Below are positions 32,919-51,987 of a stretch of 64,000 bases of DNA, in pieces. The translations under genes were made by a program, and so were the position numbers. Source of the DNA: an uncultured Alphaproteobacteria bacterium (GTDB lineage: Bacteria; Pseudomonadota; Alphaproteobacteria; HIMB59; GCA-002718135); NCBI GenBank assembly GCA_902597795.1, contig CACJZA010000005.1:12082-76081 (forward strand), written 5' to 3'. Below the pieces are notes generated by a model. It ran no database searches, was not told the DNA's origin, and worked only from the letters and a program-made list of their open reading frames with translations. Within the stretch, counting starts at the first letter, position 1. Every line of letters starts with the position of its first letter.

Positions 32919-33825
32919 CTTTTAATCCGCTAGTAATGTAAAGATACCAATCAACAACAAAATTAATTGATACACAAAGTAAAGCAATGGCAGCAGCTGG
33001 AATTAATGGTGTTAAGCCTGCTGTTATATCATATTGAGCATATTGGATAAGTATTGCATTTTCCCTTACCATTGATGCCCAATCTGCTGAAGGGGGTTGA
33101 ATGCCAATTCCTAAAAAACTTAAACTAGATATTGTAAAAATTATAAATATGAACCTTAAACCAAACTCAATAATCAAAGGTGAAGCTATATTAGGAAGTA
33201 TTTCTTTGAAAATAATGTATGATAAATTTTCACCTCTTAACCTCGCTACTTCTACATATTCTAGAACAACTTGACCAACAGCAACTGATCTTGATATTCT
33301 AAAAAATCTAGTTGACTCCAAAATTCCTAAAATGACAATTAAATTAAAATTAGTAGGTCCAAAAACCGATAAAAGTATAAAAGTAAAAATCATTACAGGT
33401 ATAGCCATCAGAGTATCGACTATTCTACTTAATAATTGATCCAAATACTTTCTATCTAGAGCAGCTATAATTCCCAATACCGTTCCAATTCCTAAAGCAA
33501 TAAATGCAGCTAACAAACAAATACCAATTGTATTTCTTGCAGCATAAATAATTCGTGAAAATATATCCCTTCCAATTTGGTCGGTGCCAAATATATGTCC
33601 ATCACCCCAAGGTGCATAAGCAACAGGAAATATTTCTGCTTCTCCATGTGGAGCAATTAAAGGAGCAAATATTGCAGCAAAAAAATATATAAACAATACA
33701 ACCATACCAAACCAGGCTGAGATTGGAGCTTTTGATAAGGCAATTTTTAATCTTTCTAATCTAGTTCTTCTTTTAATTAAATTTGCAACTTCACTTTTTG
33801 CAGAATATGATAAATTTTCGTTCAT
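32905..33825 (-). CDS. Dpp/Opp-type ABC permease (DppC-like)
   Basis: FGTDQIGRDIFSRII, EYVEVARLRGE and LSFLGIGIQPP.ADW..MV. Confidence 0.92.
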   Translation of the reverse strand: MNENLSYSAKSEVANLIKRRTRLERLKIALSKAPISAWFGMVVLFIYFFAAIFAPLIAPHGEAEIFPVAYAPWGDGHIFGTDQIGRDIFSRIIYAARNTIGICLLAAFIALGIGTVLGIIAALDRKYLDQLLSRIVDTLMAIPVMIFTFILLSVFGPTNFNLIVILGILESTRFFRISRSVAVGQVVLEYVEVARLRGENLSYIIFKEILPNIASPLIIEFGLRFIFIIFTISSLSFLGIGIQPPSADWASMVRENAILIQYAQYDITAGLTPLIPAAAIALLCVSINFVVDWYLYITSGLKDDVK

Positions 33826-34820
33826 TTTGGATATAATAATCTTGGGTTAGAAATAATTCCGATCAAGTCAGCAATTAAATTTAATATTACATATGTTGAT
33901 GCAAAAATTAATGCGCAAGCTTGTACAACAGGTAAATCTCGATTATAGACTGATCCGACCATCAACCTACCAATACCTTGATAGTTAAAAACATATTCAA
34001 CAACAACTGAGCCAATCAACATATAAGCTAAGTTTATTGCGATTACTTGAGAAATAGGTGCCCAAGCATTTGGAAGTGCGTGTTTAACAATTACCTCGTA
34101 TCTAGAAGCTCCCGATAATTTTGCCATTTCAATATATTCACTAGATAAGATATTTATTATCGCTGACCTTGTCATTCTCATCATGTGACCCATGGTAATT
34201 AATGTCAAAGTAAAAACTGGAAGTGCAGTCCTGTAAAATCTTTCAGCCAAAGTTGTATCCTCATCTACAGTAGAAATTGTTGGAAACATTGGAAATAGAG
34301 TTGCTAGTAAAAGAATAAAAATATAGGCTGTAAAAAATTCTGGTGAAGATACGGTTACTAAGCTAACTCCAGTTGCTGACCTATCATAATAAGAGTTTCT
34401 GTATAATGCTGCTGAGATACCTAAGATTAAAGATAGAGGAATAGCCAACATGGCGGCAACCCCTGTTAAAAATAATGTATTCTTTAACCTGGGGACAATT
34501 AAACCAACAACTTCTCTAGACCTATCACCTTGATCCCCTTGAACTTTAGATCTTCCAGAGAAAGAACTACCAAAATCACCTTGAAAAACATTTCCTAACC
34601 AATCAAAATATCTTGTTACTGGAGGTTTATCTAAACCCAATTCTGCTCTTAGAGCTTTTACTGCAGATTTAGTTGCACTTTGTCCTAATATTTCAGTAGC
34701 AAAGTCTCCCGGTAAAAAAGAGAATGTACTAAATATGATCACAGAAAATGCAAAAACTGTAACTAGACCAAGACTAAGCCTTAACAAAATTGTTCTAAAT
34801 ATTGGATGAATTCTACTAAT
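33822..34820 (-). CDS. Dpp/Opp-type ABC permease (DppB-like); start probably ATT at 34820 rather than TTG at 34787
   Basis: LPGD.A..ILGQ, LGLDKP...RY..WL, YIEMA.L.G, HALPNA, VVE.VFNY.GIG and RDLPVVQ. AAGGAGG SD at 34832-34826 lies 5 nt before an in-frame ATT. Confidence 0.9.
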   Translation of the reverse strand: MSRIHPIFRTILLRLSLGLVTVFAFSVIIFSTFSFLPGDFATEILGQSATKSAVKALRAELGLDKPPVTRYFDWLGNVFQGDFGSSFSGRSKVQGDQGDRSREVVGLIVPRLKNTLFLTGVAAMLAIPLSLILGISAALYRNSYYDRSATGVSLVTVSSPEFFTAYIFILLLATLFPMFPTISTVDEDTTLAERFYRTALPVFTLTLITMGHMMRMTRSAIINILSSEYIEMAKLSGASRYEVIVKHALPNAWAPISQVIAINLAYMLIGSVVVEYVFNYQGIGRLMVGSVYNRDLPVVQACALIFASTYVILNLIADLIGIISNPRLLYPK

Positions 34821-35021
34821 ATTACCCTCCTTAAAGATACAATTTTAATTCTTAAAGTTTTGTCTAAATTAGGTCAACATGTAAGCTAAAATTAATAATT
34901 TATACGTTGAATTTAAACGTTATATATGTTTTTATATATTAACTTAAGTTTGTTTTTTGTTAAATTTCTAGAAATTATGAACAAAAATCTTAGGTTTTTG
35001 TTCAATTATAAGGGAGGACAA

Positions 35022-36650
35022 ATGAAAAATAAGAAAATAGACAAATACATTGAAGAACAGTCTTCAAAGCTAACAAAAGGGCTTATTGATAGAAGACAGT
35101 TCATGATGTCTGTCCTTGCTACTGGGGTCACGCTACCAATTGCATTATCATTAGCAGATAAAGCAGTTGCAGCTACACCAAAAAAAGGTGGACATTTAAG
35201 ATGGGGTAATAGTGCAGCAGATGCAACTGATACTCTTGATCCAGCAACTTATCAGAGCTCATTTATGCAAGCTACTGCTTGGTCATATCAAAACTGTCTA
35301 ACTGTTGTTGATTCAGATCACACAATTGTTGGAGAGCTTGCTGAGTCAATTGAATCAGATGATGCTCAAACTTGGGTATATAATCTTCGCAAAGGTGTTG
35401 AATTCCATAATGGTAAATCAATGACAGCAGAAGATGTTGTGCTCAACTATCAGTATCATATGAATCCAGATACTGCTTCGGCAGCAGGTGGACTGTTATC
35501 TCAAATTGAAACAGTTTCTGCTGATGGAAATGACAGAGTTATTTTTAAGCTAAAAGGTGCAAATGCCGATTGGCCTGCAATAACTACTGACTATCATATT
35601 ATGATTAAACCAACAAAAGATGGAGTTGTTGATGCTCAATCAACGATTGGAACTGGTCCATATATTATGGATGAATTCAATCCTGGTGTTGGTGCAAAAT
35701 TTGGAAAAAGAAATCCAAATTATTTCAAAGGTGATAGTGTTGCACACTTTGATTCAGTTGAAGTAATTGGTATTAATGATCCTGCTACTAGACAAGCAGC
35801 ATTATTAAACGGTGAAATTGACTGGATGAATGGTGTTGATCTTAGAACTGCTAATCTATTGACTAGAAATCCTAGTGTAGAAATTACAGCAGCTTCTGGT
35901 TACGCTCACTATACAGCTCCAATGAGATTGAATGTTCCACCGTTTGATAACTTTGATGTGCGTATGGCAATGAAGTTTGCAATCAAAAGACAGGAAATTG
36001 TTGATAAGATTATGCTTGGATATGGTACTGTTGGTAATGATCATCCGATCTCTACTGCTCACCCATACCACAATAGCGCTTTAGAGCAGAGAGAATTCGA
36101 TGCTGATAAAGCTGCTTATCACTGGAAAAAATCTGGAATAAGTGGACCAATTGAAATTAGTACTTCTGAGGTTCCTTATGCAGGATGTACAGATGCAACT
36201 AACTTGATAGCAGCATCTGCTCAAGAATGCGGTATCGATCTTCGAGTAAAAAAAGAACCTGAAGATGGTTACTGGAGTAACGTATGGAACACTAAAGGTT
36301 TCAGTATGAGTTCTTGGGGTGGAAGACCTACAGAGGATATGATGTGGTCTGCTGCATTCACTGATGATACTGAGTGGAATGAAGCTGCTTGGGGTAATCT
36401 AGTTCAAACTGATTCAACTGTTCGTTTCAATGAACTTGTTAGATCTGCTAGATCAGAACTTGATGCGGAAAAAAGAAAATCAATGTACTGGGAAGCACAA
36501 GCTCTTTGTAACTACGATGGTGGTGCAATTGTTTATGCATTTAACCAATATGTTGGTGCTGGTTCTAAAAAACTTGCTCACGGAGAAGATGTTGCTGGTA
36601 ACTGGGAAAGTGATGGTAACAAACTTTCCGAACGTTGGTGGTTTGCATAA
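35022..36650 (+). CDS. Dpp/Opp-family (cluster C) substrate-binding protein with Tat signal
   Basis: GGGAGGA SD before the ATG at 35022. Twin-arginine DRRQFM, a hydrophobic stretch and AVA^A cleavage site; TLDP, LAES, LRKGVEFHNGK, GTGPY and C-terminal ERWW. Confidence 0.92.
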   Translation: MKNKKIDKYIEEQSSKLTKGLIDRRQFMMSVLATGVTLPIALSLADKAVAATPKKGGHLRWGNSAADATDTLDPATYQSSFMQATAWSYQNCLTVVDSDHTIVGELAESIESDDAQTWVYNLRKGVEFHNGKSMTAEDVVLNYQYHMNPDTASAAGGLLSQIETVSADGNDRVIFKLKGANADWPAITTDYHIMIKPTKDGVVDAQSTIGTGPYIMDEFNPGVGAKFGKRNPNYFKGDSVAHFDSVEVIGINDPATRQAALLNGEIDWMNGVDLRTANLLTRNPSVEITAASGYAHYTAPMRLNVPPFDNFDVRMAMKFAIKRQEIVDKIMLGYGTVGNDHPISTAHPYHNSALEQREFDADKAAYHWKKSGISGPIEISTSEVPYAGCTDATNLIAASAQECGIDLRVKKEPEDGYWSNVWNTKGFSMSSWGGRPTEDMMWSAAFTDDTEWNEAAWGNLVQTDSTVRFNELVRSARSELDAEKRKSMYWEAQALCNYDGGAIVYAFNQYVGAGSKKLAHGEDVAGNWESDGNKLSERWWFA

Positions 36651-36665
36651 AATTTTAATTTTCTT

Positions 36666-36689
36666 TGTGGCGCATTTAAATGCGCCACA
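36666..36689. terminator. Perfect 24-bp palindrome/hairpin downstream of the SBP gene
   Basis: TGTGGCGCATTTAAATGCGCCACA, followed by TTATTT on the + strand. GC-rich stem in AT-rich DNA. Confidence 0.75.
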
Positions 36690-36714
36690 TTATTTCTACT
36701 AATCTTCCAAAAAA

Positions 36715-37638
36715 ATGTTTTTAAAAAATAAGAAATACCTCTTTGATGGAGGTTCCGGTCAAACTTTAATGGAAATGGGTTTAAAGACAACAGGTGATCT
36801 TTGGTCTGCAAAAGCTTTATTAAATGAAAATAATCACCCAATGGTCGTAGAAATGCATAAAAATTTTATAAATGCAGGATCAGAATTAATCGTTACTTCA
36901 AATTTTAGTGTTAGAAGAAGACTATTAAAAAAATATAATTTACTTGATAGATTTGAATTTGGAATACGATCTGCTGGAGCACTGGCATTAAAAGCAAAAA
37001 ATGAAAGTGATAAAAAAGTTATTGTTGCAGGCTCATTGCCAAATCAAGGTAATACATATTCCCCAATACATTTTGAAACTGATGAAACCATGTTTAATTA
37101 TTTTCATGAAATTGCAAAAATATTAAAAGATTACGTCGACATTTTTTACTTAGATGTTTTGTGTTCTATCAAAGAAATAAAAATTGCTTTAGAAGCTTCA
37201 AAAGAATTTAATAAACAAGTTCTTGTAGGTGTACACTTACGTTATGATGGCAAATTACCATCTGGAGAAAGTCTTGATGAACTTTTTGAAATTATTCAAA
37301 AATTTAATTGCTGTGGCATAGTATCTGCCTGCGTATCACCAGAAATCGTTAATTTGAGTATTCCTATGTTTAATAAACAAAAGCTTCCTTTTGGTTATAA
37401 AATGAATTTATTTAAAGAATTGCCTACGAGTAATAAAGAAAAATTTAATTCAGAAGGTTTTGAAGGACATTATGATTATATTGATCCCGTTGAGTTACTT
37501 GGAACTCGAAATGAAGAATTTGGAGAAGAAAAATATAAAAAGTTTGTTTTAAATTCTTTAAATGCAGGTGTTACTCTAGTTGGTGGATGCTGTGAAGTAA
37601 AGCCACGACATATTGAAGCTATTAAGAATTTATTTTAA
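36715..37638 (+). CDS. Homocysteine S-methyltransferase family protein (BHMT/MmuM-like)
   Basis: DGG.GQ.L, LWSA.AL, H..FI.AG, VAGSLP, LPSGE, Zn ligands AC.SPE and GGCCE, and P.HI. Confidence 0.85.
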   Translation: MFLKNKKYLFDGGSGQTLMEMGLKTTGDLWSAKALLNENNHPMVVEMHKNFINAGSELIVTSNFSVRRRLLKKYNLLDRFEFGIRSAGALALKAKNESDKKVIVAGSLPNQGNTYSPIHFETDETMFNYFHEIAKILKDYVDIFYLDVLCSIKEIKIALEASKEFNKQVLVGVHLRYDGKLPSGESLDELFEIIQKFNCCGIVSACVSPEIVNLSIPMFNKQKLPFGYKMNLFKELPTSNKEKFNSEGFEGHYDYIDPVELLGTRNEEFGEEKYKKFVLNSLNAGVTLVGGCCEVKPRHIEAIKNLF

Positions 37639-37679
37639 AATTTTTTTTTAATTATTTTGTGATAAGTTAAGTATTTTTT

Positions 37680-38909
37680 ATGGGAGATTTAGTTAGTAAT
37701 TACAGATTTGTTGTAAAGCCAGTTATTAAAGAAACTGGCAGATCTCTGGATTTGGCTAGACCCATGAAAATACATCCTCTTACTTATCAGGAGTTACCAC
37801 TCAACCCAGAATATACTAACTACGCTGATGGAAGATTTACACTTGAAAAATTGTCTCATGCTACAGCAGATGAAATGTATTGGAAAGCTAGACAAGAAAT
37901 AATCTTACGTCATACGGGTGAACATCCATACGAAATCTCTGGTCCGGATGCTGAAAATTTACTTCAACAAATATTTCCTAGAGATATTTCAAAAGTAAAA
38001 ATTGGAAGATGCTCCTATCAATTTGCATGCTACCATGATGGAGGAATGATTTCAGATGGATTGTTAATAAGATTAGAAAAAAATAAATTTTGGTTTGCTC
38101 AAGGTGATGGACATTTATATAGTTGGTACAAAGCTCATTCTAAAAATTTAGATGTTGAAATTAAAGATCCAAATGTTTGGGTAAGCCAAATACAAGGACC
38201 TAAATCTCTAAGACTGTTAGAAAAACTAATTGATCAACCATTAAAAAATAATTTTAATTACTTTGATTGGATTGAAACTTCAATTGCATCAGAAAAAGTA
38301 ATTATAAGTAGAACAGGGTTTACGAATGAATTAGGTTGGGAAATTTATTTAAGACCACAAAATGATTCAAAAAAAATTGGAGACTTAATATTAAGTAAAG
38401 GTGAAGAAATGGGAATGATCTTAACAGCCTCACCAGGATTTAGATGCAGAAGAATTGAGGCAGGTCTTTTGTCTGCGGGGAGAGATTTTACCAGGGATAG
38501 ATCTCCATTTGCTGTTGGATTAGGAAAATTTATAGATTTTAATAAAGGAGATTTCATTGGAAGAGAATATTTACTTAATGCCAGTAAAGATTGTTTAACT
38601 TGGGGTATGAGAGTAGAAAATAGTTTTGCTTTAGTTGATTCTGAAATTTCTATTAATAATAAAAAAGTAGGCATTGTAACTTCAAGTACATGGTCTCCAT
38701 TTCAAGTTTGTGGTGTTGCTATAGTTCATATGAACTATGTAGAATTTGGACCAGGCACAATAGTAGATGTCAGCTGTGATGATGGTAGTTTACAAAAAGG
38801 TGAAATCTGCACTTTACCAATGTATGATGAGAAAGGTGAAATACAAAGAGGTTTAAAAGAAGATATTCCATCCAGTCCAATACCTTGGAAGGGTATTTCA
38901 AAAAACTAA
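37680..38909 (+). CDS. GcvT/aminomethyltransferase family protein (atypical, DmdA-related)
   Basis: EISGPDA..LL, PRDISK...GRC.Y, QIQGP.S, SRTGFT.ELGWEIY, RRIEAGL, KGDFIGR and G.VTS..WSP. Confidence 0.85.
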   Translation: MGDLVSNYRFVVKPVIKETGRSLDLARPMKIHPLTYQELPLNPEYTNYADGRFTLEKLSHATADEMYWKARQEIILRHTGEHPYEISGPDAENLLQQIFPRDISKVKIGRCSYQFACYHDGGMISDGLLIRLEKNKFWFAQGDGHLYSWYKAHSKNLDVEIKDPNVWVSQIQGPKSLRLLEKLIDQPLKNNFNYFDWIETSIASEKVIISRTGFTNELGWEIYLRPQNDSKKIGDLILSKGEEMGMILTASPGFRCRRIEAGLLSAGRDFTRDRSPFAVGLGKFIDFNKGDFIGREYLLNASKDCLTWGMRVENSFALVDSEISINNKKVGIVTSSTWSPFQVCGVAIVHMNYVEFGPGTIVDVSCDDGSLQKGEICTLPMYDEKGEIQRGLKEDIPSSPIPWKGISKN

Positions 38910-38957
38910 TATATTTTGTAATAGAATTATAAATTATATTAGAATACAAATATTAGA

Positions 38958-40121
38958 ATGAATGATCTCATTAAACCTAGCACAAAAATTCACACAATTG
39001 ATGATGCAATAAGATTATCTAAAAAAAGATTACCAAAATTAGTCTTTGACTTTATTGATGGAGCATCAGGAGATGACAAACTTGCAGAAATTAATAGTAC
39101 AGCATTAGATCAAATTAGACTTGAGCCTAAGGTTTTTAGAAATGTTGAGAATAGAAATTTAAGTAAAAAAATATTTGATTTTCATTTTGATTATCCATTT
39201 GGATTTGCACCAATGGGAATGACAAATCTTTCATGGCCAAATGCAGATAAAATGATAGCAAAAGAAAGTGCGTATAATAATATTCCAACATGTGTTTCAA
39301 TGGCTTCTAGTACTACGCTAGAAGATATGTTTACTTTTTCAGAAGGTCATTCGTGGATGCAAATATATATTTTTCAAAGTGAAGAATTTATAATGGAATT
39401 ATTAAAAAGAGCAGAAAGTATTGGATACAAGGTTTTGATCCTCACTGTTGATGTTCCAATTCTTTCAAGAAGAGCCAGAGATGATAGAAATGGCTTTGGT
39501 TATCCATTTAAAATTGGCCCAAAACAATTTTTAGATTTTGCACTACATCCTCAATGGAGCTTAACAACTTTATTTAAAGGCGCTCCACAACCAATGAATT
39601 ATGTTACCTCTAAAAGTGGTGATCAAATTTTTAGACGAAAAGAAAGTAGAGGAGCAACTGATTGGAATACTCTAAAAAGGGTTCGAGACGCTTGGAAAGG
39701 AAAATTAATAATCAAAGGAGTAATGAATTCTGAAGATGCTTTGAAAATTAAAGAGGCTGGTGCTGATGCAATTCAAGTATCAAATCATGGTGGAAGGCAA
39801 TTAGATAGTGCTACTGCTTCTATTAATGCTTTGCCATTAATACGAAAAGCTTTGGGAGACGATTTTCCAATACTTTTTGATAGTGGCATTAGAAGTGGTA
39901 GTGATATTTTACGAGCATTAGCTCTGGGAGCTAACTTTGTTATGTTTGGCAGACCTTTAATGTATGCTATTGGAGCAGATGGTGCAAGAGGTCTTAGAAG
40001 AATCATTAATCTAATTAAAGAAGAGTTAAGTACAAATCTTGGCTTAGTGGGATTAACCGATATAAATGAAGTTGATAAAAAAATTATAGCAGAGAAATTT
40101 TTTAAGGATATAAAGTATTAA
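38958..40121 (+). CDS. FMN-dependent alpha-hydroxy-acid oxidase/dehydrogenase (LldD/glycolate oxidase family)
   Basis: RLPK.VFDFIDG, APMG, LTVDVP...RR.RD, IIKGV, VSNHGGRQLD, DSGIRSGSD and GRP. Confidence 0.92.
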   Translation: MNDLIKPSTKIHTIDDAIRLSKKRLPKLVFDFIDGASGDDKLAEINSTALDQIRLEPKVFRNVENRNLSKKIFDFHFDYPFGFAPMGMTNLSWPNADKMIAKESAYNNIPTCVSMASSTTLEDMFTFSEGHSWMQIYIFQSEEFIMELLKRAESIGYKVLILTVDVPILSRRARDDRNGFGYPFKIGPKQFLDFALHPQWSLTTLFKGAPQPMNYVTSKSGDQIFRRKESRGATDWNTLKRVRDAWKGKLIIKGVMNSEDALKIKEAGADAIQVSNHGGRQLDSATASINALPLIRKALGDDFPILFDSGIRSGSDILRALALGANFVMFGRPLMYAIGADGARGLRRIINLIKEELSTNLGLVGLTDINEVDKKIIAEKFFKDIKY

Positions 40122-40122
40122 G

Positions 40123-41865
40123 ATGGGAGATAAAAAGATTAGAGGTGGGGCATTAGTTGCAAGAGCTCTTAAAGACAAAGGTATTGATAATGTTTTTACA
40201 CTTTCTGGAGGTTTTTGTAATCCGGCACTTGAAGGATTTATGGAGTGTCAAATTAATGTAATTAATTGTCCTCATGAACAAATTGCTGGTCATTTAGCTG
40301 ATGGTCATACTAGAATATCAAGAAAACCTTCTGTTTGTATTGTTGGACCAGAAGGTTTTGCAAATGCAGTACCCTCAATGATGGAAGCTTGGGGTGAAAG
40401 ATCCCCTGTTATTTTTATAACTGGATCTAGTAGCTTAAAAAGACAAGGATCAGGCGGTTTTAAGGAAATAGATGATGTATCTATTGCTGCACCTTTAACA
40501 AAATACAGTGCCAGTATAACAGATGGCAATAGAATAAGAGAGTTCGTAGATAAAGCTTATAGAATTGCAACAAATGGCTATCCTGGTGCAGTACATTTAA
40601 GTGTACCAGTAGATATAATGTTTTCATCATTTGCAGATGATGCAGGTTTAGAAGAAAGACCTTTTACTCATCAAAAAAAACCTTTAGCAAAAGCTTGGCC
40701 TGATCCTGAGAGTTTAAATGAAATATTTGATCTGGCAATTAGTGCGCAAAAACCTGTTTTTATTGGAGGGCATGGTGTTTGGTGGTCTAGTGCAGAAAAA
40801 AAATTAGAACAAGCTGGCTTTGAATTAAACATTCCAATATTTAATATACCATACCATCAAAAGCTTTTAGGTGAAGAGGCAGATACATACATGGGTCTGG
40901 CAGATATTCATCAATACCCCCCATCAAAGATGGCTCTAAATGAATCAGATTTGGTTCTTATGATTGGTGCACGTCTTGATAATCAAATGAATTTTGGTAA
41001 TCCTCCACTTTTTCCAAAAAGCACTAAACTTATTTGTATTAATGGATCGCATGAAGAGATAGAACTAAATAGAGCTGCAGATATTAACTTACTTTGTGAT
41101 CCTGGAGTTTTTTTGGACAAACTCATAGAGTTAAAGAAAAACAGTAAATGGAAATTAAACAATCAATGGTTTGATAAGAATAAAAAAGAGAAAAAAATTT
41201 GGATTGATAAAACATTAGATGAATTAAATAAAGAAACTAAACAGACGAAAAAAAATGGTGGAAAAATTCATCCTCTTCAATTAGCTTTAGATGTTCAAGA
41301 AGTATTAAATGAAAATGATTGGTTAGTTATTGATGGTGGAAATACACATTTCTGGTCTGAGATCGCAATTAATATTGCTGGATCAAAAGGTAAAAAACTT
41401 GGAGGAATATTGCATCCGGGTACTTTCAGTATGTTAGGTGTTGGAGTTCCTTTTGCAATATCAGCGAAAAATCTTAATCCTAAATCTAATGTTGTTTTAA
41501 TAAGTGGAGATGGTGCATTTTTATCTGGTGGATTATCAATTGAAGCTGCATTTCAAGAAAAAAAACCTATTGTTGTAGTTATAGATAACAATGGAGGTCT
41601 TGACTGTATCTCTCAACAACAAGAAAGGTTATTTGAAAGTGGAAAACACTTTGCAACTGATTTTAGAGATATTCCATTTCATTCAATTTTTGAGGGTTTT
41701 GGAGGGCATGGAGAATTAGTTACTAAAAGAGAAGATTTAGCCCCCGCTTTAAAAAGAGCGTTAGATAGTGGTAAAACTTCATGTGTAAATGTTAAGGCTA
41801 AAGGCGTTATAAGTCCAATAGTTGCTGCAGTAAGTGATAAAAGAGATAAAGCATCTATAGAGTAG
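40123..41865 (+). CDS. Thiamine-diphosphate-dependent enzyme (ALS / 2-hydroxyacyl-CoA lyase-like)
   Basis: HEQ.AG..ADG (catalytic Glu), G.PGAVHLS.PVD, DGG and the GDGAF...(VV.DNN) ThDP/Mg motif. Confidence 0.88.
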   Translation: MGDKKIRGGALVARALKDKGIDNVFTLSGGFCNPALEGFMECQINVINCPHEQIAGHLADGHTRISRKPSVCIVGPEGFANAVPSMMEAWGERSPVIFITGSSSLKRQGSGGFKEIDDVSIAAPLTKYSASITDGNRIREFVDKAYRIATNGYPGAVHLSVPVDIMFSSFADDAGLEERPFTHQKKPLAKAWPDPESLNEIFDLAISAQKPVFIGGHGVWWSSAEKKLEQAGFELNIPIFNIPYHQKLLGEEADTYMGLADIHQYPPSKMALNESDLVLMIGARLDNQMNFGNPPLFPKSTKLICINGSHEEIELNRAADINLLCDPGVFLDKLIELKKNSKWKLNNQWFDKNKKEKKIWIDKTLDELNKETKQTKKNGGKIHPLQLALDVQEVLNENDWLVIDGGNTHFWSEIAINIAGSKGKKLGGILHPGTFSMLGVGVPFAISAKNLNPKSNVVLISGDGAFLSGGLSIEAAFQEKKPIVVVIDNNGGLDCISQQQERLFESGKHFATDFRDIPFHSIFEGFGGHGELVTKREDLAPALKRALDSGKTSCVNVKAKGVISPIVAAVSDKRDKASIE

Positions 41866-41868
41866 GTT

Positions 41869-42204
41869 ATGGCAATTTTTTCTACACATTTACTAAACTC
41901 AATAGATGGTACGCATGCAAGTGATGTAGAAATTGTTATTTATAAAGTAAATAATAATAACAAAGTTGTATTTTTAGAAGATAAAACAGATAGCTCTGGA
42001 AGAATGCTTAAAGAATTTGAATTAACGAAAGAAGATTGTGAAAGTGATTATGAAATGATAATTAATTCTGGTAAATATTTTAGAAATACTAGTGAAATAA
42101 TTAATTCAATAAGTGTTAAATTTAAAATGAAAGATCCTCTTAAAAAATACCACATACCTCTAATTATTTCTCCAAATGGATACTCAATATGGTGGTCAAA
42201 ATAA
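41869..42204 (+). CDS. Transthyretin-like / 5-hydroxyisourate hydrolase family protein, atypical (ends YSIWWSK)
   Basis: STH.L....G..A, TD..GR and YHIPL.ISP.GYS are present. The canonical YRGS terminus is replaced. Confidence 0.8.
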   Translation: MAIFSTHLLNSIDGTHASDVEIVIYKVNNNNKVVFLEDKTDSSGRMLKEFELTKEDCESDYEMIINSGKYFRNTSEIINSISVKFKMKDPLKKYHIPLIISPNGYSIWWSK

Positions 42205-42205
42205 A

Positions 42206-43327
42206 ATGAGTAATTCAGGATTAAACATGTCTAGACGTATTAGGAGGACTCCCTATACCGAGAAAGTAATTGAGGCTGGTGTAAGTGGTTTTACTGTAGT
42301 TAACCATATGCTTCTTCCAAAATCATATAAAGCAACAGTAGAAGAAGATTATTGGCACTTATCTAAAAATACTCAAATTTGGGATGTTTCATGTCAACGA
42401 CAGGTTCAAATAATAGGAGAAGATGCTACAGAATTAATACAACTCATGTCTCCAAGATCAATAAAAGATATGCCTATTGGTAAATGTTACTATTATCCAA
42501 TGATTGATGAAAATGCAGGGATGATAAATGATCCCGTACTTTTAAAATTAAGTGAAAATAAATATTGGCTATCAGTTGCAGACTCAGATGTTCTTCTTTG
42601 GGCAAAAGGATTGGCTGTAGGAAGAAATTTTAAAGTTGATATTATAGAGCCAGATATTTACCCCTTAGCAATTCAAGGTCCAAAATCTGAAAAATTAATG
42701 TCATCAATATTTGGAGAAAAAATTAAAAAATTAAAATTCTTTCATTTTTCTTTTTTTGAATTTGAAGGAACAAAACAGATAATTGCAAGATCAGGATATA
42801 GCAAACAAGATGGTTTTGAGATTTATCTTAAAGGTTTTAGTTTAGGAAAAAAACTTTGGGAAACTATTTGGGAAGCAGGAAAAGATTTTAATATTTCACC
42901 TGGATGTCCAAATTTAATTGATAGAATAGAAGGTGGTTTATTATCCTATGGTAATGAATTTACTTTAGAAAATAATCCAATTGAATGTGGATTTGATAAT
43001 TATTGTAACAATTTATCTCATGATTTCATTGGAAAAAATGAGCTAAAAAAAATATTAAAAAATGGAATAGAAAAAAAAATAAAAGGAATTACTTTTGATG
43101 GGTCTCCGACTCCCTCGTGTACAATACCTTTTCCTGTATATTCAAAAAATAGATTTCAAATTGGTAATATCACCTCTGGTATTTATTCACCATTTTTAAA
43201 AACGAATATTGGGCTATCAATGGTTGATAGAGACTATTGGAATGATGGGCAAGATGTTATCGTATTAACACCAGACAATATTGAGAGAAAAGGTAAAGTG
43301 TGCTCGCTACCTTTTAATTATTCTTAA
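42206..43327 (+). CDS. dmdA: DMSP demethylase DmdA or close paralog (GcvT family)
   Basis: SRRIRRTPY, V.NHMLLP, DYWHL....QIWDVSCQRQV, NDPVLLKL, WLS.ADSD.LLWAKG, ARSGYSKQ.GFEIY, PGCPNLI.RIEGGLLSYGN. Start at the ATG at 42206. Confidence 0.75.
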   Translation: MSNSGLNMSRRIRRTPYTEKVIEAGVSGFTVVNHMLLPKSYKATVEEDYWHLSKNTQIWDVSCQRQVQIIGEDATELIQLMSPRSIKDMPIGKCYYYPMIDENAGMINDPVLLKLSENKYWLSVADSDVLLWAKGLAVGRNFKVDIIEPDIYPLAIQGPKSEKLMSSIFGEKIKKLKFFHFSFFEFEGTKQIIARSGYSKQDGFEIYLKGFSLGKKLWETIWEAGKDFNISPGCPNLIDRIEGGLLSYGNEFTLENNPIECGFDNYCNNLSHDFIGKNELKKILKNGIEKKIKGITFDGSPTPSCTIPFPVYSKNRFQIGNITSGIYSPFLKTNIGLSMVDRDYWNDGQDVIVLTPDNIERKGKVCSLPFNYS

Positions 43328-43328
43328 A

Positions 43329-43775
43329 ATGAGTCATTCAATCGAATTAAAGTGGGAATTAGGAGATCAGAAACTCGAATTTGGAAAATATTTAACTGAT
43401 CACACAGTAATGCTTAACGAAAATGTATCTATTGATGCAGGATCATCTCCAGATTATGGGGGAAGCGAAAGTAATATTAATCCAGAGCAAAAACTAGCTG
43501 CAGCTGTAAGTAGTTGTTTTATGATGACGTTTTTAGCTTTAGCTGCAAAAATGAAATGGCCAGTTATTAATTACAAAGATAAAGCAATTTCGTATTTAGG
43601 AAAAAATGCAGAGGGAAGAATGTTCGTCAACAAAATAGAGTTAAATCCAGCTATAGTATTTGAAGATAATTTTAATATTTCTGATGAAGAAATGAAAAAG
43701 ATGAAAGAGAGATCACATAAGTATTGTTTTATTGCTAATTCACTATCTAAAGATGTTGAAATTCAAATTAATTAA
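43329..43775 (+). CDS. OsmC/Ohr family protein
   Basis: NPEQ.L.AA.SSC.M.TFL and H.YCFIANS, with both conserved Cys. Start at the ATG at 43329. Confidence 0.88.
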   Translation: MSHSIELKWELGDQKLEFGKYLTDHTVMLNENVSIDAGSSPDYGGSESNINPEQKLAAAVSSCFMMTFLALAAKMKWPVINYKDKAISYLGKNAEGRMFVNKIELNPAIVFEDNFNISDEEMKKMKERSHKYCFIANSLSKDVEIQIN

Positions 43776-44567
43776 ATGAATTTTAATCTAATATTATCTG
43801 AAAAAAATAATAACATTTCTAATATTATTCTTAATGATCAGAAAAACCAAAATACTTTAAGTGAAAACATGATCAATGAATTAACGTCAGCGCTAGATAT
43901 TGCTGATAAAGATAATGAAGTAAAAGTAATTATTTTATCATCAAAAGGTAATATTTTTTGTGCAGGACATAATTTAAAAGATTTAAATTCACAAAGATTG
44001 CAAAATGACAGAGGTGAAAGCTATTTTAAAAAAATATTTCAAATGTGCTCTCAACTTATGCTGAAAATTAATAAAAATAATAAACCAGTTATAGCTATGG
44101 TTGATGGTATCGCTACTGCAGCAGGCTGTCAGTTAATTTCTAGCTGTGATTTAGCTTACTCAAGTAGCAGAGCAAAATATGCAACTCCTGGTGTTAATAT
44201 TGGATTATTTTGTTCTACACCAATGGTTCCATTATCAAGAACTGTAGGTAAAAAACAAGCTATGGAAATGCTTCTCACTGGAGATCTTATAGATGCAAAT
44301 AAAGCATTAAGGATTGGTTTAATAAATGATGTCTTTGAAGAAGATAGTTTAAAAGAAAATGTATTTCAAATTGCTAAAAAAATATCATCTAAATCTTCTA
44401 ATACTATTAAAATTGGTAAAGAAGCTTTTTACAAACAAAAAGATATGAATTTAGAAGACGCATATACTTTTACTTCAAATGTAATGACGGAAAATATGTT
44501 ACATGATGATTCCAAAGAAGGTATTGAAGCTTTTTTAGAAAAAAGAGAACCAAACTGGAAAGAATAA
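43776..44567 (+). CDS. Enoyl-CoA hydratase/crotonase family protein (ECHDC3-like)
   Basis: FCAGHNLKD, V.GIATAAGCQL...CDLA, ATPGVNIGLFCSTP.V.LSR, AMEMLLTG and EGI.AFLEKR.P.W. Confidence 0.9.
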   Translation: MNFNLILSEKNNNISNIILNDQKNQNTLSENMINELTSALDIADKDNEVKVIILSSKGNIFCAGHNLKDLNSQRLQNDRGESYFKKIFQMCSQLMLKINKNNKPVIAMVDGIATAAGCQLISSCDLAYSSSRAKYATPGVNIGLFCSTPMVPLSRTVGKKQAMEMLLTGDLIDANKALRIGLINDVFEEDSLKENVFQIAKKISSKSSNTIKIGKEAFYKQKDMNLEDAYTFTSNVMTENMLHDDSKEGIEAFLEKREPNWKE

Positions 44568-44574: not shown

Positions 44575-46047
44575 TTAAAATGGGTCAGGTTGAGATGGAT
44601 TGGTAGCTAACCATGTAGATTTGGTCTGCATGTAACTTTGCATTCCCTCCCATCCATTTTCACGACCGTATCCTGATTGCTTGAAACCTCCAACTGGAGA
44701 TTGAGTAGAAGCATTAAAATAATTATTTATATAAACAGTTCCAGCCTCTATCTTATCTGATAAACGTATAGCTTTATTAGTATCCTTGGTCCAAATACCT
44801 GCTGCAAGTCCATAAATAGTATCGTTTGCAATTTTAATTACTTCATCTTCATTATCCCAAGATTGTATAGAGGCGACAGGTCCAAATACTTCATTTTGAG
44901 CTAAATCATCTTCATTTGGAACATTATCAAAAATAGTTGGTCCAATATAGTACCCTTCAGATTTTTGTTCTTTTCTTCCATCAATTAATAATTTTAAACC
45001 TCTATTTTCAGCCGCTTCTATCTTAGATAAAATAAAATCATATTGCTCTTTATTAGCTATAGGTCCTATTTGTGTTGCTGTATCATTTGGGTGACCAACT
45101 TTAGCTTTTTTAACAACTTCTAATAAATTTTGAGTAAATTTATCTTTTATATCTTTATGCACTAATATTCTTGATCCTGAAATACAGCTATGACCTGAAA
45201 CTGGAAAGATCCCTGAAACAACTCCATTAACTGATAAAGTTAAATCAGCATCTTTAAATATAATTTGTGGTGATTTTCCTCCTAGCTCCATAATAATAGG
45301 TTTAACATTTTTGGATGCACTTAAACTAGCTGCACTCCCCCCTTTTGTTCCACCTGTAAAACTTATCATTCTAACATCTTGGTGTTCAATAAGAGGTGCA
45401 CCAGTGGTAGGGCCAAAACCAGTAACAACATTAATTAAACCTTCTGGAAGATCAGCTTCTTCTAAAATTTTCATTAACTCTAATGTAGAGCATGACGCTC
45501 TTTCTGAAGGCTTGATTACAACTGTATTGCCTGCTGCTATTGCTGGTGCTAATTTCCAGATTAATGTTCCAATTGGTGAATTCCAAGGAAGAATAAGTGC
45601 AACAACTCCAAATGGTTCCCATTTTAAATAATTATGCATATTTGGAACCTCTGAAGGTATCAGCCTACCTTCATACTTGTCACACATACCTGCATAATAA
45701 TAAAAACTCTCAGTCTGCCAGCCAGTTAAAGAGGGAGTGATATTTTTTGGAAGTTTGCCGTTGTCTTTAGTTTCTACTTTTCCAATACGTTCTGCGTTTT
45801 TAGCAATAATATCTCCAATTCTAGTTAATGTTCTTCCTCTTTCTGCCGGATGCATTTTACCATAAGGACCATCATAATAAGCACGTTTAGCAGATGATAC
45901 TGCAAGATTAATATCTTTTTCATTACAGTCAGGGACCTTTGCCCATACTTTACCTATAGATGGATCCTCACTTTCAAAATATTTTTCAGAAGAAGGGTCA
46001 TGCCATTTATTTCCTGCATAAAATTTGTAGGTTTGAATTTCAGACAT
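44575..46047 (-). CDS. Aldehyde dehydrogenase (DhaS-like)
   Basis: PWNSP, KPSE, FTGGT, MELGGKSP, catalytic SCISGSR, EVFGPV and GGFKQSGYGRE. Confidence 0.9.
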   Translation of the reverse strand: MSEIQTYKFYAGNKWHDPSSEKYFESEDPSIGKVWAKVPDCNEKDINLAVSSAKRAYYDGPYGKMHPAERGRTLTRIGDIIAKNAERIGKVETKDNGKLPKNITPSLTGWQTESFYYYAGMCDKYEGRLIPSEVPNMHNYLKWEPFGVVALILPWNSPIGTLIWKLAPAIAAGNTVVIKPSERASCSTLELMKILEEADLPEGLINVVTGFGPTTGAPLIEHQDVRMISFTGGTKGGSAASLSASKNVKPIIMELGGKSPQIIFKDADLTLSVNGVVSGIFPVSGHSCISGSRILVHKDIKDKFTQNLLEVVKKAKVGHPNDTATQIGPIANKEQYDFILSKIEAAENRGLKLLIDGRKEQKSEGYYIGPTIFDNVPNEDDLAQNEVFGPVASIQSWDNEDEVIKIANDTIYGLAAGIWTKDTNKAIRLSDKIEAGTVYINNYFNASTQSPVGGFKQSGYGRENGWEGMQSYMQTKSTWLATNPSQPDPF

Positions 46048-46077: not shown

Positions 46078-47733
46078 TCAACTTATTTGTGATTGATTAA
46101 TTTTTAATATCATATCTGATGCTTTTTCTGCTAACATAATTACAGATGCATTTATATTTCCACTTATCATATCTGGGAAAGAAGATGCATCTACTACTCT
46201 CAGATTGTCTATTCCTCTAACTTTAAGCTGATTATCAAGTACAGCCATTTTGTTATTACTTGAACCCATTGCGCAAGTAGATGCAGGATGATGCCCTGTT
46301 TGTACATGATTTCGAACTGACTCTTTTAAATCCTGATCACTTTTTATTTTTTTTCCTGGAAGTAATTCTTCCGAAACAATTTTTGCTAAACTGGGTTTTG
46401 ACAATACTTCTCTTGTATGCTTCATCCCTTCTATCATATCTTCCATATCTGATGGATCGATGAACCAATTTGGATTTATATTAAGTTCATCATTAGGATT
46501 TGAGCTTTTAAGTTTTACACTTCCTGTGCTCTTTGGTCTTAATAAATTAATTTGAAAGTGTAATCCTGGAAAAGCTTTTTTACCTCTAGAAAAAAATAAT
46601 GAACCAAAATTTAATAAATTGTCTAAACTCATAGACCAGTTATCTTTTTCTTCTTTAAAACACATAGGTGTCATGAACACTTGTATTTCAGGCATTTCTT
46701 TTTCTCTTATTGCATGAAATAGATTTGTTGACCAAAAAGGAGCAGAAGCTAATCCTTGTTTAAATAAAATATATTTTAATCCCACAATAATAGCTCTATC
46801 GATCCTTTGATATTTAGAGAAACTTAAATTGTTGTTTTGAAAAGTCCAATTCATTGGCATAACAGGATGATCATGAAGGTTTTCACCTACTCCAGGTAAG
46901 TTAATTAATAATTCTATATTTTTTTCTTTTAAATGTTCTTCTGGACCAATTCCTGACAACATTAAACATTTGGGACTACCGAATGCTCCTAAAGATAATA
47001 TTACCTCTGATGATGCATAAACTTCACCATTTGATAAAAGTAATCCTTTAGCTTTATTTTTCTCAATTAAAATTTTTATTACAGATGTATTTTTGTAAAT
47101 TGTTAAGTTGCTAGGTTTAAATTTCAAATAAGCTTCTGCGGATGATTGTCTTTTTCCCTTCCATACTTTAACGTCATATCGGCCTACTCCATTTAGATTG
47201 CCATTGTAAAAATCATTATTAATTTCTGCCCCAGCTTCAACACATGCATCAATAAATGCTTTATCGATAGAATTATAATTACCAGCTGGTGTAAGTTTTA
47301 AAGGACCTGAATGTGAGTGATATTCATTTTTTTCTCTATGAAAAGCTGAAGCAGATCTTTTGAAATATGGTAATACATCATTATATGACCAACCCTCTAA
47401 GCCCTTTTGTCTCCACCTATTAAAATCACCTGGAGCGCCTCTCATGTAAATCATACCGTTTAAAAGAGAAGATCCTCCTAGTCCTTTACCTCTAGGGTAT
47501 AAAATTTTTCTATTATTTAAAGAAGGTTGAGGTATTGACTCTAAACCCCAATCAAATTTAGGATTTCCAAAAATATATCCGTTACCACCGGGCATTTGAG
47601 TGAATAAACTTTTTCCTGAACCACCTGCTTCTATTAATAATACCTTTATATCTTTATTTTCTGATAATCTTGAGGCTAATGTACAGCCAGCAGAACCTCC
47701 TCCAGCTATAATATAGTCAAATGTTTTTTTCAT
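46078..47733 (-). CDS. GMC family FAD oxidoreductase (choline dehydrogenase-like paralog)
   Basis: DYIIAGGGSAGC..A.RLSE, PRGKGLGGSS..NGM.YMRG, GVGENLHDHP, HHPASTC.MG and SGNINA.VIMLAEKA. Confidence 0.9.
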   Translation of the reverse strand: MKKTFDYIIAGGGSAGCTLASRLSENKDIKVLLIEAGGSGKSLFTQMPGGNGYIFGNPKFDWGLESIPQPSLNNRKILYPRGKGLGGSSLLNGMIYMRGAPGDFNRWRQKGLEGWSYNDVLPYFKRSASAFHREKNEYHSHSGPLKLTPAGNYNSIDKAFIDACVEAGAEINNDFYNGNLNGVGRYDVKVWKGKRQSSAEAYLKFKPSNLTIYKNTSVIKILIEKNKAKGLLLSNGEVYASSEVILSLGAFGSPKCLMLSGIGPEEHLKEKNIELLINLPGVGENLHDHPVMPMNWTFQNNNLSFSKYQRIDRAIIVGLKYILFKQGLASAPFWSTNLFHAIREKEMPEIQVFMTPMCFKEEKDNWSMSLDNLLNFGSLFFSRGKKAFPGLHFQINLLRPKSTGSVKLKSSNPNDELNINPNWFIDPSDMEDMIEGMKHTREVLSKPSLAKIVSEELLPGKKIKSDQDLKESVRNHVQTGHHPASTCAMGSSNNKMAVLDNQLKVRGIDNLRVVDASSFPDMISGNINASVIMLAEKASDMILKINQSQIS

Positions 47734-50846: not shown

Positions 50847-51986
50847 ATGAGTAGTAAATATCATGTAAAAAAATTAGAAAAAAAGAATGACCATTTAAGT
50901 ATTTTGTGGAAAGATAATTTTGAAAGTAAATTTCATTTTATGTGGTTAAGAGATAATTGCCCAACAGCAATACATCCTACTGCAAATATGCGAATCTTTA
51001 ATATTTTAACTATTAGTAAAAATATATTTCCTACAAATTATAAAATTGAAAAAAATAAACTCAATATTGATTGGAGTGAAGGTGATCATAGTAGTAAATT
51101 CAACTTAAAATGGTTAAGAGATCATTGTTATACCGAAATACATAATCGAGAATATAAATCACCTTATGTTTTTTGGGATGGTAAATTAAAAAAAAATTTA
51201 AAGAAAATTATTGTTGATCATAATAGTGTTATAAAAAATGAAAAACATTTAAGTAAATGGTTAAATTTACTTCATACTTATGGTTTTGCATTAATCAAAA
51301 ATGCACCAACTAGCAAAAAATCAGCATTCAAAATATTAAATAGAATAAGCCATCATAGAGAAACATTTTTTGGTACACCATTTGAAGTAATTAACATTCC
51401 AAAACCAAATAACACTGCTTATACTGCAGATGCATTAAGAAATCATACCGACTTACCTTATTTTGAATATGCACCTGGTTATCAGTTTCTTCATTGTTTA
51501 GTAAATGAAGCTAATGGTGGATTATCATCTGTTGTAGATGGTTTTGCAGTTGCAAATTATTTAAAAAAAAATGTAAAAGATGTTTTTAATATTTTAACAA
51601 AAACTCACGTTAAATTCAAAGATACTGATTATACTCAAAAAGCTATCAGAATTCTTCATTCACCAATAATAACACTTACAAAAGATAATGATTTCAATGA
51701 TATTAGATTTAGTATGGCTGCAATGGGAGCAGTTGATATTGATCCAAAAAAAATGAAAAAATTTTATGATGCCTACCAATATTTTGCATCATTACTTCAA
51801 AACAAAAAATTTAAAATTGATTTTAGATTAGAGGCAGGTGATATATTTTGTTTTAACAATAGAAGAGTATTACATGGAAGGACTGAATTTGATCCAAACT
51901 CTGGAAATAGACATCTTCAAGGGTATTATATTGAAAGAGATGAAATAATAGGAAGATTAAATTATTTTAATAATATTAAAGTATAG
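50847..51986 (+). CDS. Fe(II)/2-oxoglutarate dioxygenase, gamma-butyrobetaine dioxygenase family
   Basis: N-terminal WLRDNC domain, N.AYT...L..HTDLPY (HxD), PG.QFLHC, DGFAVA, NNRRVLHGR and RHLQG.Y. Confidence 0.85.
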   Translation: MSSKYHVKKLEKKNDHLSILWKDNFESKFHFMWLRDNCPTAIHPTANMRIFNILTISKNIFPTNYKIEKNKLNIDWSEGDHSSKFNLKWLRDHCYTEIHNREYKSPYVFWDGKLKKNLKKIIVDHNSVIKNEKHLSKWLNLLHTYGFALIKNAPTSKKSAFKILNRISHHRETFFGTPFEVINIPKPNNTAYTADALRNHTDLPYFEYAPGYQFLHCLVNEANGGLSSVVDGFAVANYLKKNVKDVFNILTKTHVKFKDTDYTQKAIRILHSPIITLTKDNDFNDIRFSMAAMGAVDIDPKKMKKFYDAYQYFASLLQNKKFKIDFRLEAGDIFCFNNRRVLHGRTEFDPNSGNRHLQGYYIERDEIIGRLNYFNNIKV

Positions 51987-51987
51987 A

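Follow-up and report, generated by a model that had tools for sequence, protein, structure and literature searches.

A conserved four-gene cassette ending in a DmdA-family gene probably marks an undescribed route for a compound related to dimethylsulfoniopropionate in Proteobacteria

The DNA analysed here, a stretch of 64,000 nucleotides referred to as the window, comes from an uncultured alphaproteobacterium of the HIMB59 lineage and carries, at 36715–44567, eight co-oriented genes that include a homologue of the dimethylsulfoniopropionate (DMSP) demethylase gene dmdA. The window has a G+C content of about 29%, and the host genome comprises 1.19 Mb at 71% completeness. An earlier note on this DNA had described the eight genes as co-oriented and the last six as tightly packed, and the open reading frames (ORFs) and junction sequences confirmed this: with DmdA starting at the ATG at 42206 and OsmC at the ATG at 43329, the junction gaps are 41, 48, 1, 3, 1, 1 and 0 nt from 5' to 3'. 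The alternative first starts of these two ORFs (42176 for DmdA and 43281 for OsmC) would make them run into their upstream neighbours, and the start at 42206 is supported by the alignment with the crystallized DmdA of Pelagibacter ubique (PDB 3tfh), whose first aligned position is residue 1 of that version. The warning in the note that tight spacing may join unrelated genes was apt. Elsewhere in the window, 19 of 35 same-strand junctions measure 3 nt or less, in a census that took the first start codon of each ORF and is biased toward short gaps. Given that these other junctions are equally tight, spacing is no evidence for a common function.

Synteny across classes, rather than spacing, delimits the functional unit. 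It consists of four consecutive genes, encoding a flavin mononucleotide (FMN)-dependent L-2-hydroxy-acid dehydrogenase, a thiamine diphosphate (ThDP) enzyme, a transthyretin-like (TTR-like) protein and a DmdA-family methyltransferase. One genome per species was scanned with the ThDP enzyme of the alphaproteobacterial genome G179, which gave at least 601 pattern matches, 567 of them confirmed; the synteny counts refer to the best 80 of these 567 ThDP-orthologue loci. The TTR gene lies directly 3' of the ThDP gene in 80 of 80 loci. Of the 76 loci with enough sequence downstream, 67 have a DmdA-type gene no more than 3.5 kb past the ThDP gene, mostly right after the TTR gene. The FMN dehydrogenase gene is the immediate upstream neighbour of the ThDP gene in 54 of the 75 loci that extend far enough, and the full set of four was found in 49 of 72 loci. 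With this degree of synteny (80/80 and 67/76), the genes are not scattered in relatives, and the grouping of ThDP enzyme, TTR-like protein and DmdA to which the earlier note drew attention holds strongly across classes.

The four-gene cassette is the conserved heart of the eight-gene run, from SAR11-type bacteria of the ocean to bacteria of lakes, and its hosts cover Alpha-, Beta- and Gammaproteobacteria. They include Hyphomicrobiales, Rhizobiaceae (Hoeflea), Pelagibius, single cells and isolates of Pelagibacteraceae, Puniceispirillales, Paracoccaceae, Granulosicoccaceae and Arenicellales, together with the Comamonadaceae genera Rhodoferax, Polaromonas, Limnohabitans and Hydrogenophaga, where several record titles name lakes or ponds. 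By contrast, the operon of eight genes that the note proposed is not kept as a unit: a homocysteine S-methyltransferase-family (HMT) gene occurs within 10 kb of the ThDP gene in 6 of 80 loci, a crotonase gene in 3, an OsmC gene in 2 (it is kept within the genus), and an aldehyde dehydrogenase (ALDH) gene in 4, at 33–36% identity, although an ALDH gene is adjacent in the genus of the window. Orthologues of the second GcvT-family protein of the run, GcvT2 (62–65% identity), are confined to Pelagibacter-type loci. HMT, GcvT2, OsmC, crotonase and ALDH are lineage-specific additions, GcvT2 being restricted to the SAR11 type, and the eight genes are best explained as a lineage-specific assembly around a mobile four-gene catabolic cassette.

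At closer taxonomic range, the ThDP gene was detected in 70 of 104 other genomes of the same genus and in 5 of 11 high-quality genomes at the family level. Across 19 same-genus regions, the order from the permease genes to the glucose-methanol-choline (GMC) oxidoreductase gene is kept wherever the contig allows, with 2 of the 19 cut by contig ends. Among 401 genomes sampled evenly across the class, a ThDP orthologue (at least 70% identity) was present only in the host genome (G000), G079 and G179, and the remaining 23 matches are paralogues with at most 32% identity. G179 (4.3 Mb, 59% G+C) has the FMN dehydrogenase (49% identity), ThDP (69%) and TTR (37%) genes in the same order, beside genes for a TAXI-TRAP transporter and a transposase and without a DmdA gene. 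A search for homologues of the ThDP enzyme gave at least 120 rows, those listed all being 97–100% identical, and one of the 97% identical homologues is labelled 'Candidatus Pelagibacterales bacterium' by NCBI. A tblastn search of a plasmid collection with the G179 enzyme gave no match at 1e-100.

In one congener, G002, which is 92% complete, the given queries detected no ThDP enzyme, solute-binding protein, orthologue-grade GMC oxidoreductase, ScfR regulator, PrpD-like gene or BKACE. G002 is a divergent member of the genus, with housekeeping proteins 55–83% identical, and it retains synteny for window positions 6455–17250. The stretch at 23–50 kb as a whole may be flexible within the genus, and no island boundary could be drawn. 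The apparent absence in G051 is unreliable, as the assembly breaks there (a contig of 2656 bases).

The match of the methyltransferase to the curated DmdA model NF009133 (530.6 bits) extends over residues 12–377 of the long ORF and scored 530.3 bits in the whole-genome search. The host genome has two genes above the DmdA cut-off, the cassette copy at 530 bits and a copy on another contig at 531 bits, which are 46% identical to each other (174/375 aligned positions). Scored against 3tfh, the second copy reaches 550.4 bits, the cassette copy 405.9 and a Pelagibacter cassette copy 400. The second dmdA (G000 contig C12, 23710–24798; locus L008, 9702–10811) is followed by two EamA transporter genes and a gene of the dihydrodipicolinate synthase (DHDPS) family; DHDPS-family genes also occur near the cassette in L061, L062, L071 and L098. 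Of the 401 sampled genomes of the class, 26 encode a DmdA that passes the cut-off, and among the 29 DmdA-type loci fetched from this sample (L140–L168, four of them under the cut-off), ThDP and TTR genes lie within 1.5 kb only in the locus from the same genus.

The relationships of these proteins were examined in a quick IQ-TREE search with 63 rows: 30 of the 67 cassette-linked DmdAs, chosen for taxonomic spread, the window copy and that of a congener, 28 non-cassette loci of the class sample, the second copy of the genome and two GcvT2 sequences as outgroup. The 32 cassette-linked DmdAs form one clade (SH-aLRT 96) nested in a DmdA clade of 55 rows (99), which also holds the 3tfh-like second copy and in which the fork among subclades is without resolution. 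Considering that all linked DmdAs fall in one clade, the link between DmdA and the other three genes appears to be old and maintained. Between the cassette clade and 23 non-cassette DmdAs, 76 columns conserved at 90% or more are shared and two differ (V32/Y and E251/D), which fits unchanged DmdA chemistry. The cassette DmdA thus very probably keeps the transfer of a methyl group to folate from a sulfonium compound, which may or may not be DMSP itself. Functional DmdAs may be only 35–40% identical to the reference enzymes, and another look-alike failed complementation (PMC10746254); Sun et al. reported a second dmdA-like aminomethyltransferase in HTCC1062, for which the substrate is not known (PMC3160333).

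The first enzyme of the cassette had been called an alpha-hydroxy-acid oxidase, but it looks more like a mandelate/lactate-type dehydrogenase. It falls below the LldD-specific cut-offs (270.6 bits against 376, and 226 against 550). Among PDB chains it scores 263 bits with L-lactate oxidase (7f22), 237 with full-length (S)-mandelate dehydrogenase (6bfg) and 197 with the soluble chimera of the latter (1huv). We take these scores as a hint that the flavoenzyme is a membrane-type dehydrogenase rather than a hydrogen peroxide-forming oxidase. A role of OsmC as peroxide scavenger for an oxidase was considered and rejected, given the resemblance of the flavoenzyme to membrane-type dehydrogenases and the presence of OsmC in 2 of 80 loci.

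The ThDP enzyme is an orphan. It scores below the cut-off in all 25 NCBIfam models shown of the 51 matched, including those for 2-hydroxyacyl-CoA lyase (HACL; 242.7 bits, cut-off 600) and oxalyl-CoA decarboxylase (OXC; 208.1 bits, cut-off 557). The nearest PDB chains are 8vzc/8vzf (187 bits; 2-hydroxyacyl-CoA lyase/oxalyl-CoA decarboxylase), 7pt2 (175 bits) and benzaldehyde lyase (163 bits), and benzoylformate decarboxylase is not among the best 60 of its 66 PDB matches. The enzyme is conserved to an unusual degree: over 29 sequences from three proteobacterial classes, identity averages 79% per column, the ThDP motif GDG...NN is kept and the last eight residues do not vary.

The partner gene, which the note had called a variant UraH, is a real variant: its product scores 70.7 bits on the 5-hydroxyisourate hydrolase (HIUase) model TIGR02962, under the cut-off of 87.45, and ends in GYSIWWSK. 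The aligned HIUase and transthyretin-like chains of the PDB have GYSTY plus three further residues at this point, and the canonical HIUase ending is YRGS. The YS-x-WWS ending is present in nearly all of 61 TTR-like proteins of the cassette. In 29 sequences, H7, R45, H95, E62 and W108 are invariant and H16 nearly so, and H7, R45 and H95 align with the active-site His, Arg and His of HIUase 2g2n. No credible fusion of the TTR-like protein was found, the 3 matches of 196–2000 aa all being on contigs shorter than 1.8 kb. A structure prediction of the ThDP/TTR complex from 29-row alignments gave a score of 0.00 against a mark of 0.32 and is counted neither way. No uricase, allantoinase or other gene of ureide or purine catabolism was found among the annotated cluster representatives and flanking ORFs.

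The features of the locus are collected in Table 1.

Table 1. Genes of the cassette and its surroundings in the window, with the basis of each assignment
Feature	Coordinates	Strand	Basis
ABC ATPase of a divergent Opp/Dpp-type importer	31305..32918	-	Two ABC_tran domains, oligo_HPY (Pfam)
Opp/Dpp-type permease, OppC-like	32905..33825	-	PF00528, PF12911
Opp/Dpp-type permease, OppB-like	33822..34787	-	PF00528, PF19300
Family-5 solute-binding protein of the importer	34926..36650	+	PF00496, 228.6 bits; no NCBIfam equivalog at cut-off
HMT, homocysteine S-methyltransferase family	36715..37638	+	PF02574, 137 bits; under BHMT and MmuM cut-offs
GcvT2, GcvT-family protein	37680..38909	+	PF01571; neither DmdA nor GcvT by curated cut-offs
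FMN-dependent L-2-hydroxy-acid dehydrogenase, core gene 1	38958..40121	+	PF01070, 396.3 bits, profile positions 2-349 of 350 (full-length match)
Orphan ThDP enzyme, OXC/HACL/benzaldehyde-lyase branch, core gene 2	40123..41865	+	Three TPP domains
Transthyretin/HIUase-fold protein (TTR), core gene 3	41869..42204	+	PF00576; remodelled C-terminus YS-x-WWS
DmdA-family methyltransferase, cassette-linked clade ('DmdA2'), core gene 4	42206..43327	+	NF009133, 530.6 bits (cut-off 410)
OsmC/Ohr-family protein	43329..43775	+	PF02566, 58 bits
Crotonase, ECHDC3-like enoyl-CoA hydratase	43776..44567	+	PF00378; NF006008, 369 bits (cut-off 313)
ALDH, convergent, betaine aldehyde dehydrogenase-like below cut-off	44575..46047	-	PF00171; TIGR01804, 457 bits (cut-off 668.6)
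GMC oxidoreductase, choline-dehydrogenase-like below cut-off	46078..47733	-	NF002550, 514.8 bits (cut-off 605)

An Opp-type ABC importer (homology clusters 5–8) accompanies the cassette in about 25–27 of the 80 loci; a fused ATPase homologous to that of the window (cluster 5) occurs in 27, and the OppC-like permease, kept within the genus, has counterparts of 27–33% identity near the cassette in other lineages. Other recurrent neighbours are LysR regulators and TRAP or TctC transporters. Genes for enzymes of 2-oxo or 2-hydroxy acids are also found, of the Ldh_2 family in 8 of 80 loci and ketopantoate-reductase-like in 7, and a GMC oxidoreductase gene lies near the cassette in a single locus of the 80. 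Thiolase genes occur near the cassette in 18 loci in all, in Pelagibacter, and behind them, two genes after the cassette DmdA, lies a class-IV (branched-chain type) aminotransferase gene in 13 of 80 loci, all Pelagibacter-type. A gene for an S51-family peptidase (dipeptidase E/cyanophycinase family) stands between importer and flavoenzyme gene in 30 of 80 loci (for example, L106, 8160–8867), in SAR11, SAR116, Comamonadaceae and others; it is not in this window, where HMT occupies its place. The imported compound might be a peptide-like conjugate.

Two single loci have neighbours of another kind. In L074, an alphaproteobacterial metagenome-assembled genome (MAG), genes of the IF-2B and class-II aldolase families abut the cassette upstream (7001–8715; 1/80), which we read, by family names only, as MtnA- and MtnB-like genes of methionine salvage. 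In L079 (Hoeflea sp. TYP-13), a gene of the SBP56 family, which we take to be the methanethiol oxidase family, lies 2 kb downstream of the cassette (14280–15812; 1/80). Both hint at methylthio chemistry.

Within the run of the window, GcvT2 scores 180.6 bits with the trimethylamine N-oxide demethylase model of NCBIfam (cut-off 1100) and 175.1 with that of DmdA (cut-off 410). The best PDB chain of the crotonase is ECHDC3 (2vx2, 237 bits), and none of its 26 PDB matches is named DmdD. As the earlier note had stated, no DmdB, DmdC or DmdD gene is adjacent to the cassette DmdA. Rfam searches, over the whole window at gathering scores and over 34700–39100 at E ≤ 1, returned one tRNA only, so that no riboswitch was detected upstream of HMT in the latter segment. 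Fourteen RNA runs contain 36–44% of the sampled words of 36715–44567, a figure from which we draw no claim on expression.

Taken together, the cassette is a probable sign of a so far undescribed pathway for a compound related to DMSP. Its substrate would be a methylated onium 2-hydroxy acid or the 2-oxo acid that corresponds to it. More narrowly, we tentatively read the cassette as serving the catabolism of a methyl-sulfonium 2-hydroxy acid related to DMSP, or of the corresponding thioether, with 4-dimethylsulfonio-2-hydroxybutyrate (DMSHB) as the most specific candidate, a reading that we consider possible rather than probable. The compound would be imported by the neighbouring Opp-type ABC system (by TRAP, TAXI or TTT systems in other hosts) and oxidized at C2 to the 2-oxo acid by the flavoenzyme, after which the ThDP enzyme would take off C1, the TTR-like protein would process or shield a labile product and the DmdA-clade enzyme would transfer an S-methyl group to tetrahydrofolate. 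In its most specific version, DMSHB would be converted to DMSP and then to methylmercaptopropionate (MMPA), and the cassette would supply the DMSHB decarboxylase activity for which no genes are known in most bacteria. In the host genome, HMT and GcvT2 would harvest further methyl groups, with OsmC and crotonase as local add-ons. The substrate, the order of the steps and the role of the TTR-like protein are thereby proposed on top of the observed family memberships, gene order, conservation and separate DmdA clade; DMSHB or S-methylmethionine, the substrates suggested in the earlier note, are a guess. A bolder form of this proposal seems to us doubtful. In it, the ThDP enzyme and its obligate TTR-fold partner would be a new two-protein catalyst and, with the flavoenzyme, would make the substrate of a dedicated DmdA clade from a sulfonium hydroxy acid of algae such as DMSHB or a related compound.

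Methyl-removing enzymes recur near the cassette (MttB family 8/80, HMT 6/80, and GcvT2 in Pelagibacter loci), as do the Ldh_2 and ketopantoate-reductase-like enzymes named above, a context that supports the sulfonium route. The sequence of reactions put forward in the note, from hydroxy acid to oxo acid to ThDP chemistry, has a precedent in the mandelate pathway. The DMSHB version gains interest because, according to PMC11306096, no enzyme with DMSHB decarboxylase activity has been identified either in DMSP producers or in organisms that do not make DMSP, such as Rhizobium. Ruegeria pomeroyi is reported in that paper to lack the conversion of DMSHB to DMSP.

Several observations weigh against the route through a sulfonium hydroxy acid. 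A simple decarboxylase route needs an ALDH, yet this gene is near the cassette in only the few loci given above, so the convergent ALDH of the window, to which the note had assigned a DMSP-aldehyde step, is no conserved partner. The ThDP enzyme is nearest to CoA-ester lyases and decarboxylases and to benzaldehyde lyase, not to 2-oxo-acid decarboxylases. Benzoylformate decarboxylase is missing from its 60 best PDB matches. The role of the TTR-like protein is the weakest link of the proposed mechanism. The 9 of 76 loci with room that have no DmdA gene, and likewise the G179 trio, indicate that the other three genes can work without DmdA. By record title, the cassette is present in Comamonadaceae MAGs from lakes and ponds, where DMSP-type compounds are, to our knowledge, not known to be abundant. 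Finally, algal DMSHB is probably the D-enantiomer, and the flavoenzyme family acts on L-2-hydroxy acids. The words 'enantiomer' and 'D-MTHB' were not found in PMC11306096.

A reversed order of steps is an alternative that we regard as rather unlikely. The DmdA-clade enzyme would act first, converting DMSHB to 4-methylthio-2-hydroxybutyrate (MTHB) or DMSP to MMPA, and the flavoenzyme and ThDP enzyme would then take MTHB through 4-methylthio-2-oxobutyrate (MTOB) to methional or MMPA; otherwise MTOB would be transaminated to methionine for sulfur supply. The class-IV aminotransferase of the Pelagibacter-type loci, the MtnA/MtnB-like genes (by family names only) directly upstream of the cassette in L074 and the presumed methanethiol oxidase gene of L079 are in line with this order, and MTOB is chemically stabler than its sulfonium analogue. 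However, these neighbours are rare (1/80 each) or limited to a single lineage (13/80), the ALDH is again not conserved, and methionine salvage requires no ThDP enzyme, yet the ThDP–TTR pair is the best-conserved part of the cassette (80/80).

It is also conceivable, though unlikely, that two functions lie side by side, the first three genes degrading an unmethylated 2-hydroxy acid and DmdA being an ordinary DMSP demethylase that travels along. Such an acid could be of the ureide or glyoxylate type, given the HIUase ancestry of the TTR-like protein, which retains the His/Arg/His residues of that enzyme. The occurrence of the trio without DmdA in 9/76 loci and in G179, the Ldh_2-family genes in 8/80 loci (which we take to be the ureidoglycolate dehydrogenase family) and the unaltered appearance of DmdA2 as a DmdA are consistent with this separation. 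Against it stand the presence of a DmdA gene after the TTR gene, in most cases as its direct neighbour, in 67/76 loci from three classes, the single clade of linked DmdAs, which points to an old and maintained link, and the lack of uricase, allantoinase and other ureide genes among the annotated neighbours.

A third possibility, very unlikely in our view, is that a betaine-type (N-methylated) 2-hydroxy or 2-oxo acid is degraded and that the cassette DmdA clade has shifted to that quaternary-ammonium substrate. MttB-family methyltransferase genes adjoin the cassette in 8/80 loci, quaternary-amine genes abound in the window (BKACE, a 3-hydroxyacyl-CoA-dehydrogenase-type gene, a gamma-butyrobetaine-hydroxylase-like gene and two GMC oxidoreductases), and the paired C-terminal tryptophans of the TTR-like protein could conceivably bind an onium group. 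Yet the cassette clade departs from the other DmdAs at only 2 strongly conserved columns, and a direct transfer of methyl groups from ammonium to tetrahydrofolate is not known for this family. Chance packing of eight unrelated neighbours in a streamlined genome, where gaps of 3 nt or less are the norm (19/35), has next to no probability for the run as a whole, as it fails to explain why the four genes recur in the same order in three classes of Proteobacteria; it is refuted for the four core genes and possible for HMT, OsmC and crotonase.

The wider window contains further gene groups. At 23548–28326, genes for a thioesterase, BKACE, a 3-hydroxyacyl-CoA-dehydrogenase-type protein, a zinc-alcohol-dehydrogenase-like protein and an ScfR-type regulator are grouped, a set that looks like a route from carnitine to glycine betaine. 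A gamma-butyrobetaine-hydroxylase-like dioxygenase (TauD plus GBBH N-domain), two aldehyde dehydrogenases and a class-V aminotransferase are encoded at 50847–56232 and may form a trimethyl-lysine or butyrobetaine route. Considering the cassette, these genes and the two GMC oxidoreductases, the stretch at 23–56 kb looks like an island for methylated osmolytes. At 18024–22961, a gene of the agmatine-deiminase family, a carbon-nitrogen hydrolase gene and a polyamine-type ABC transporter are grouped, probably for the conversion of agmatine to putrescine. At 56000–64000, the G+C content drops from about 30% to 20–22% over genes for glycosyltransferases, a UDP-sugar dehydrogenase, a heparinase II/III-like protein and a UDP-GlcNAc 2-epimerase, which looks like a variable region for cell-surface polysaccharide.

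The gene dmdA is the usual marker of the principal sink for DMSP in the sea. A whole DmdA clade, found in SAR11-type bacteria, SAR116 and numerous others, almost always closes an uncharacterized cassette, so what this clade really acts on, and the flux of sulfur and methyl groups ascribed to it, may be misread. If the bolder, two-protein form of the proposal is correct, a substantial part of the 'dmdA' genes counted by ocean surveys, along with some from lakes, would report an unrecognized organosulfur pathway rather than plain DMSP demethylation, and the long-sought DMSHB-decarboxylating activity of bacteria would have a gene. The cassette offers candidate genes for DMSHB decarboxylation in bacteria, non-producers included. 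Two of its proteins, the ThDP enzyme (about 70–88% identity across classes) and the remodelled TTR-like protein, have no characterized close relative. In full-text literature searches, no published description of the cassette was found; supplementary tables, which might list the genes, were outside their scope. Cultured carriers are available in Hoeflea sp. TYP-13, Pelagibius sp. Alg239-R121 and Pelagibacter sp. HIMB1709, making the question directly testable.

Among known systems, the cassette resembles in its first two steps the mandelate pathway of Pseudomonas putida (MdlB-MdlC-MdlD), in which an FMN 2-hydroxy-acid dehydrogenase is likewise followed by a ThDP enzyme. However, the ThDP enzyme of the cassette is not MdlC-like, benzoylformate decarboxylase being outside its best 60 PDB matches, no conserved ALDH takes the role of MdlD (4/80 loci), and the mandelate pathway has neither a TTR-like protein nor a DmdA gene. 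Within the ThDP superfamily, the OXC/HACL/benzaldehyde-lyase branch has the same three-domain architecture and provides the best PDB matches, whereas the cassette enzyme scores far under the curated cut-offs of this branch and the cassette includes no conserved gene for a CoA ligase or CoA transferase. HIUases and bacterial transthyretin-like proteins (PucM, Escherichia coli HiuH; 2g2n, 2h0e) share with the cassette protein the PF00576 fold and the N-terminal His, Gly-Arg and Tyr-His-x-Pro motifs, and the cassette protein differs from them in its YS-x-WWS end, the extra nearly invariant His16, the invariant Glu62 and the score below the cut-off.

With the DmdA-DmdB-DmdC-DmdD/AcuH pathway of Ruegeria pomeroyi and 'Ca. 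Pelagibacter ubique' HTCC1062, the cassette shares a fourth gene that passes the DmdA model and agrees in the 76 shared columns, although this DmdA belongs to a clade apart from the copy that resembles the crystallized enzyme. Unlike the DMSP demethylation operon, the 31–50 kb part of the window has no AMP-binding or acyl-CoA dehydrogenase gene. Its crotonase is ECHDC3-like, with no DmdD among the 26 PDB matches and only 118 bits with chain 5xzd, which we take to be AcuH. The 27 other DmdA-type loci of the class sample, in turn, have no ThDP or TTR gene within 1.5 kb. The net reaction proposed for the cassette, from DMSHB to DMSP, is that of the DsyD domain of DsyGD, the DMSHB decarboxylase of Gynuella sunshinyii; DsyD has no relationship to the proteins of the cassette and, according to PMC11306096, consists of one ureidoglycolate-lyase-like domain (PF04115), belongs to a biosynthetic enzyme and is confined to few taxa.

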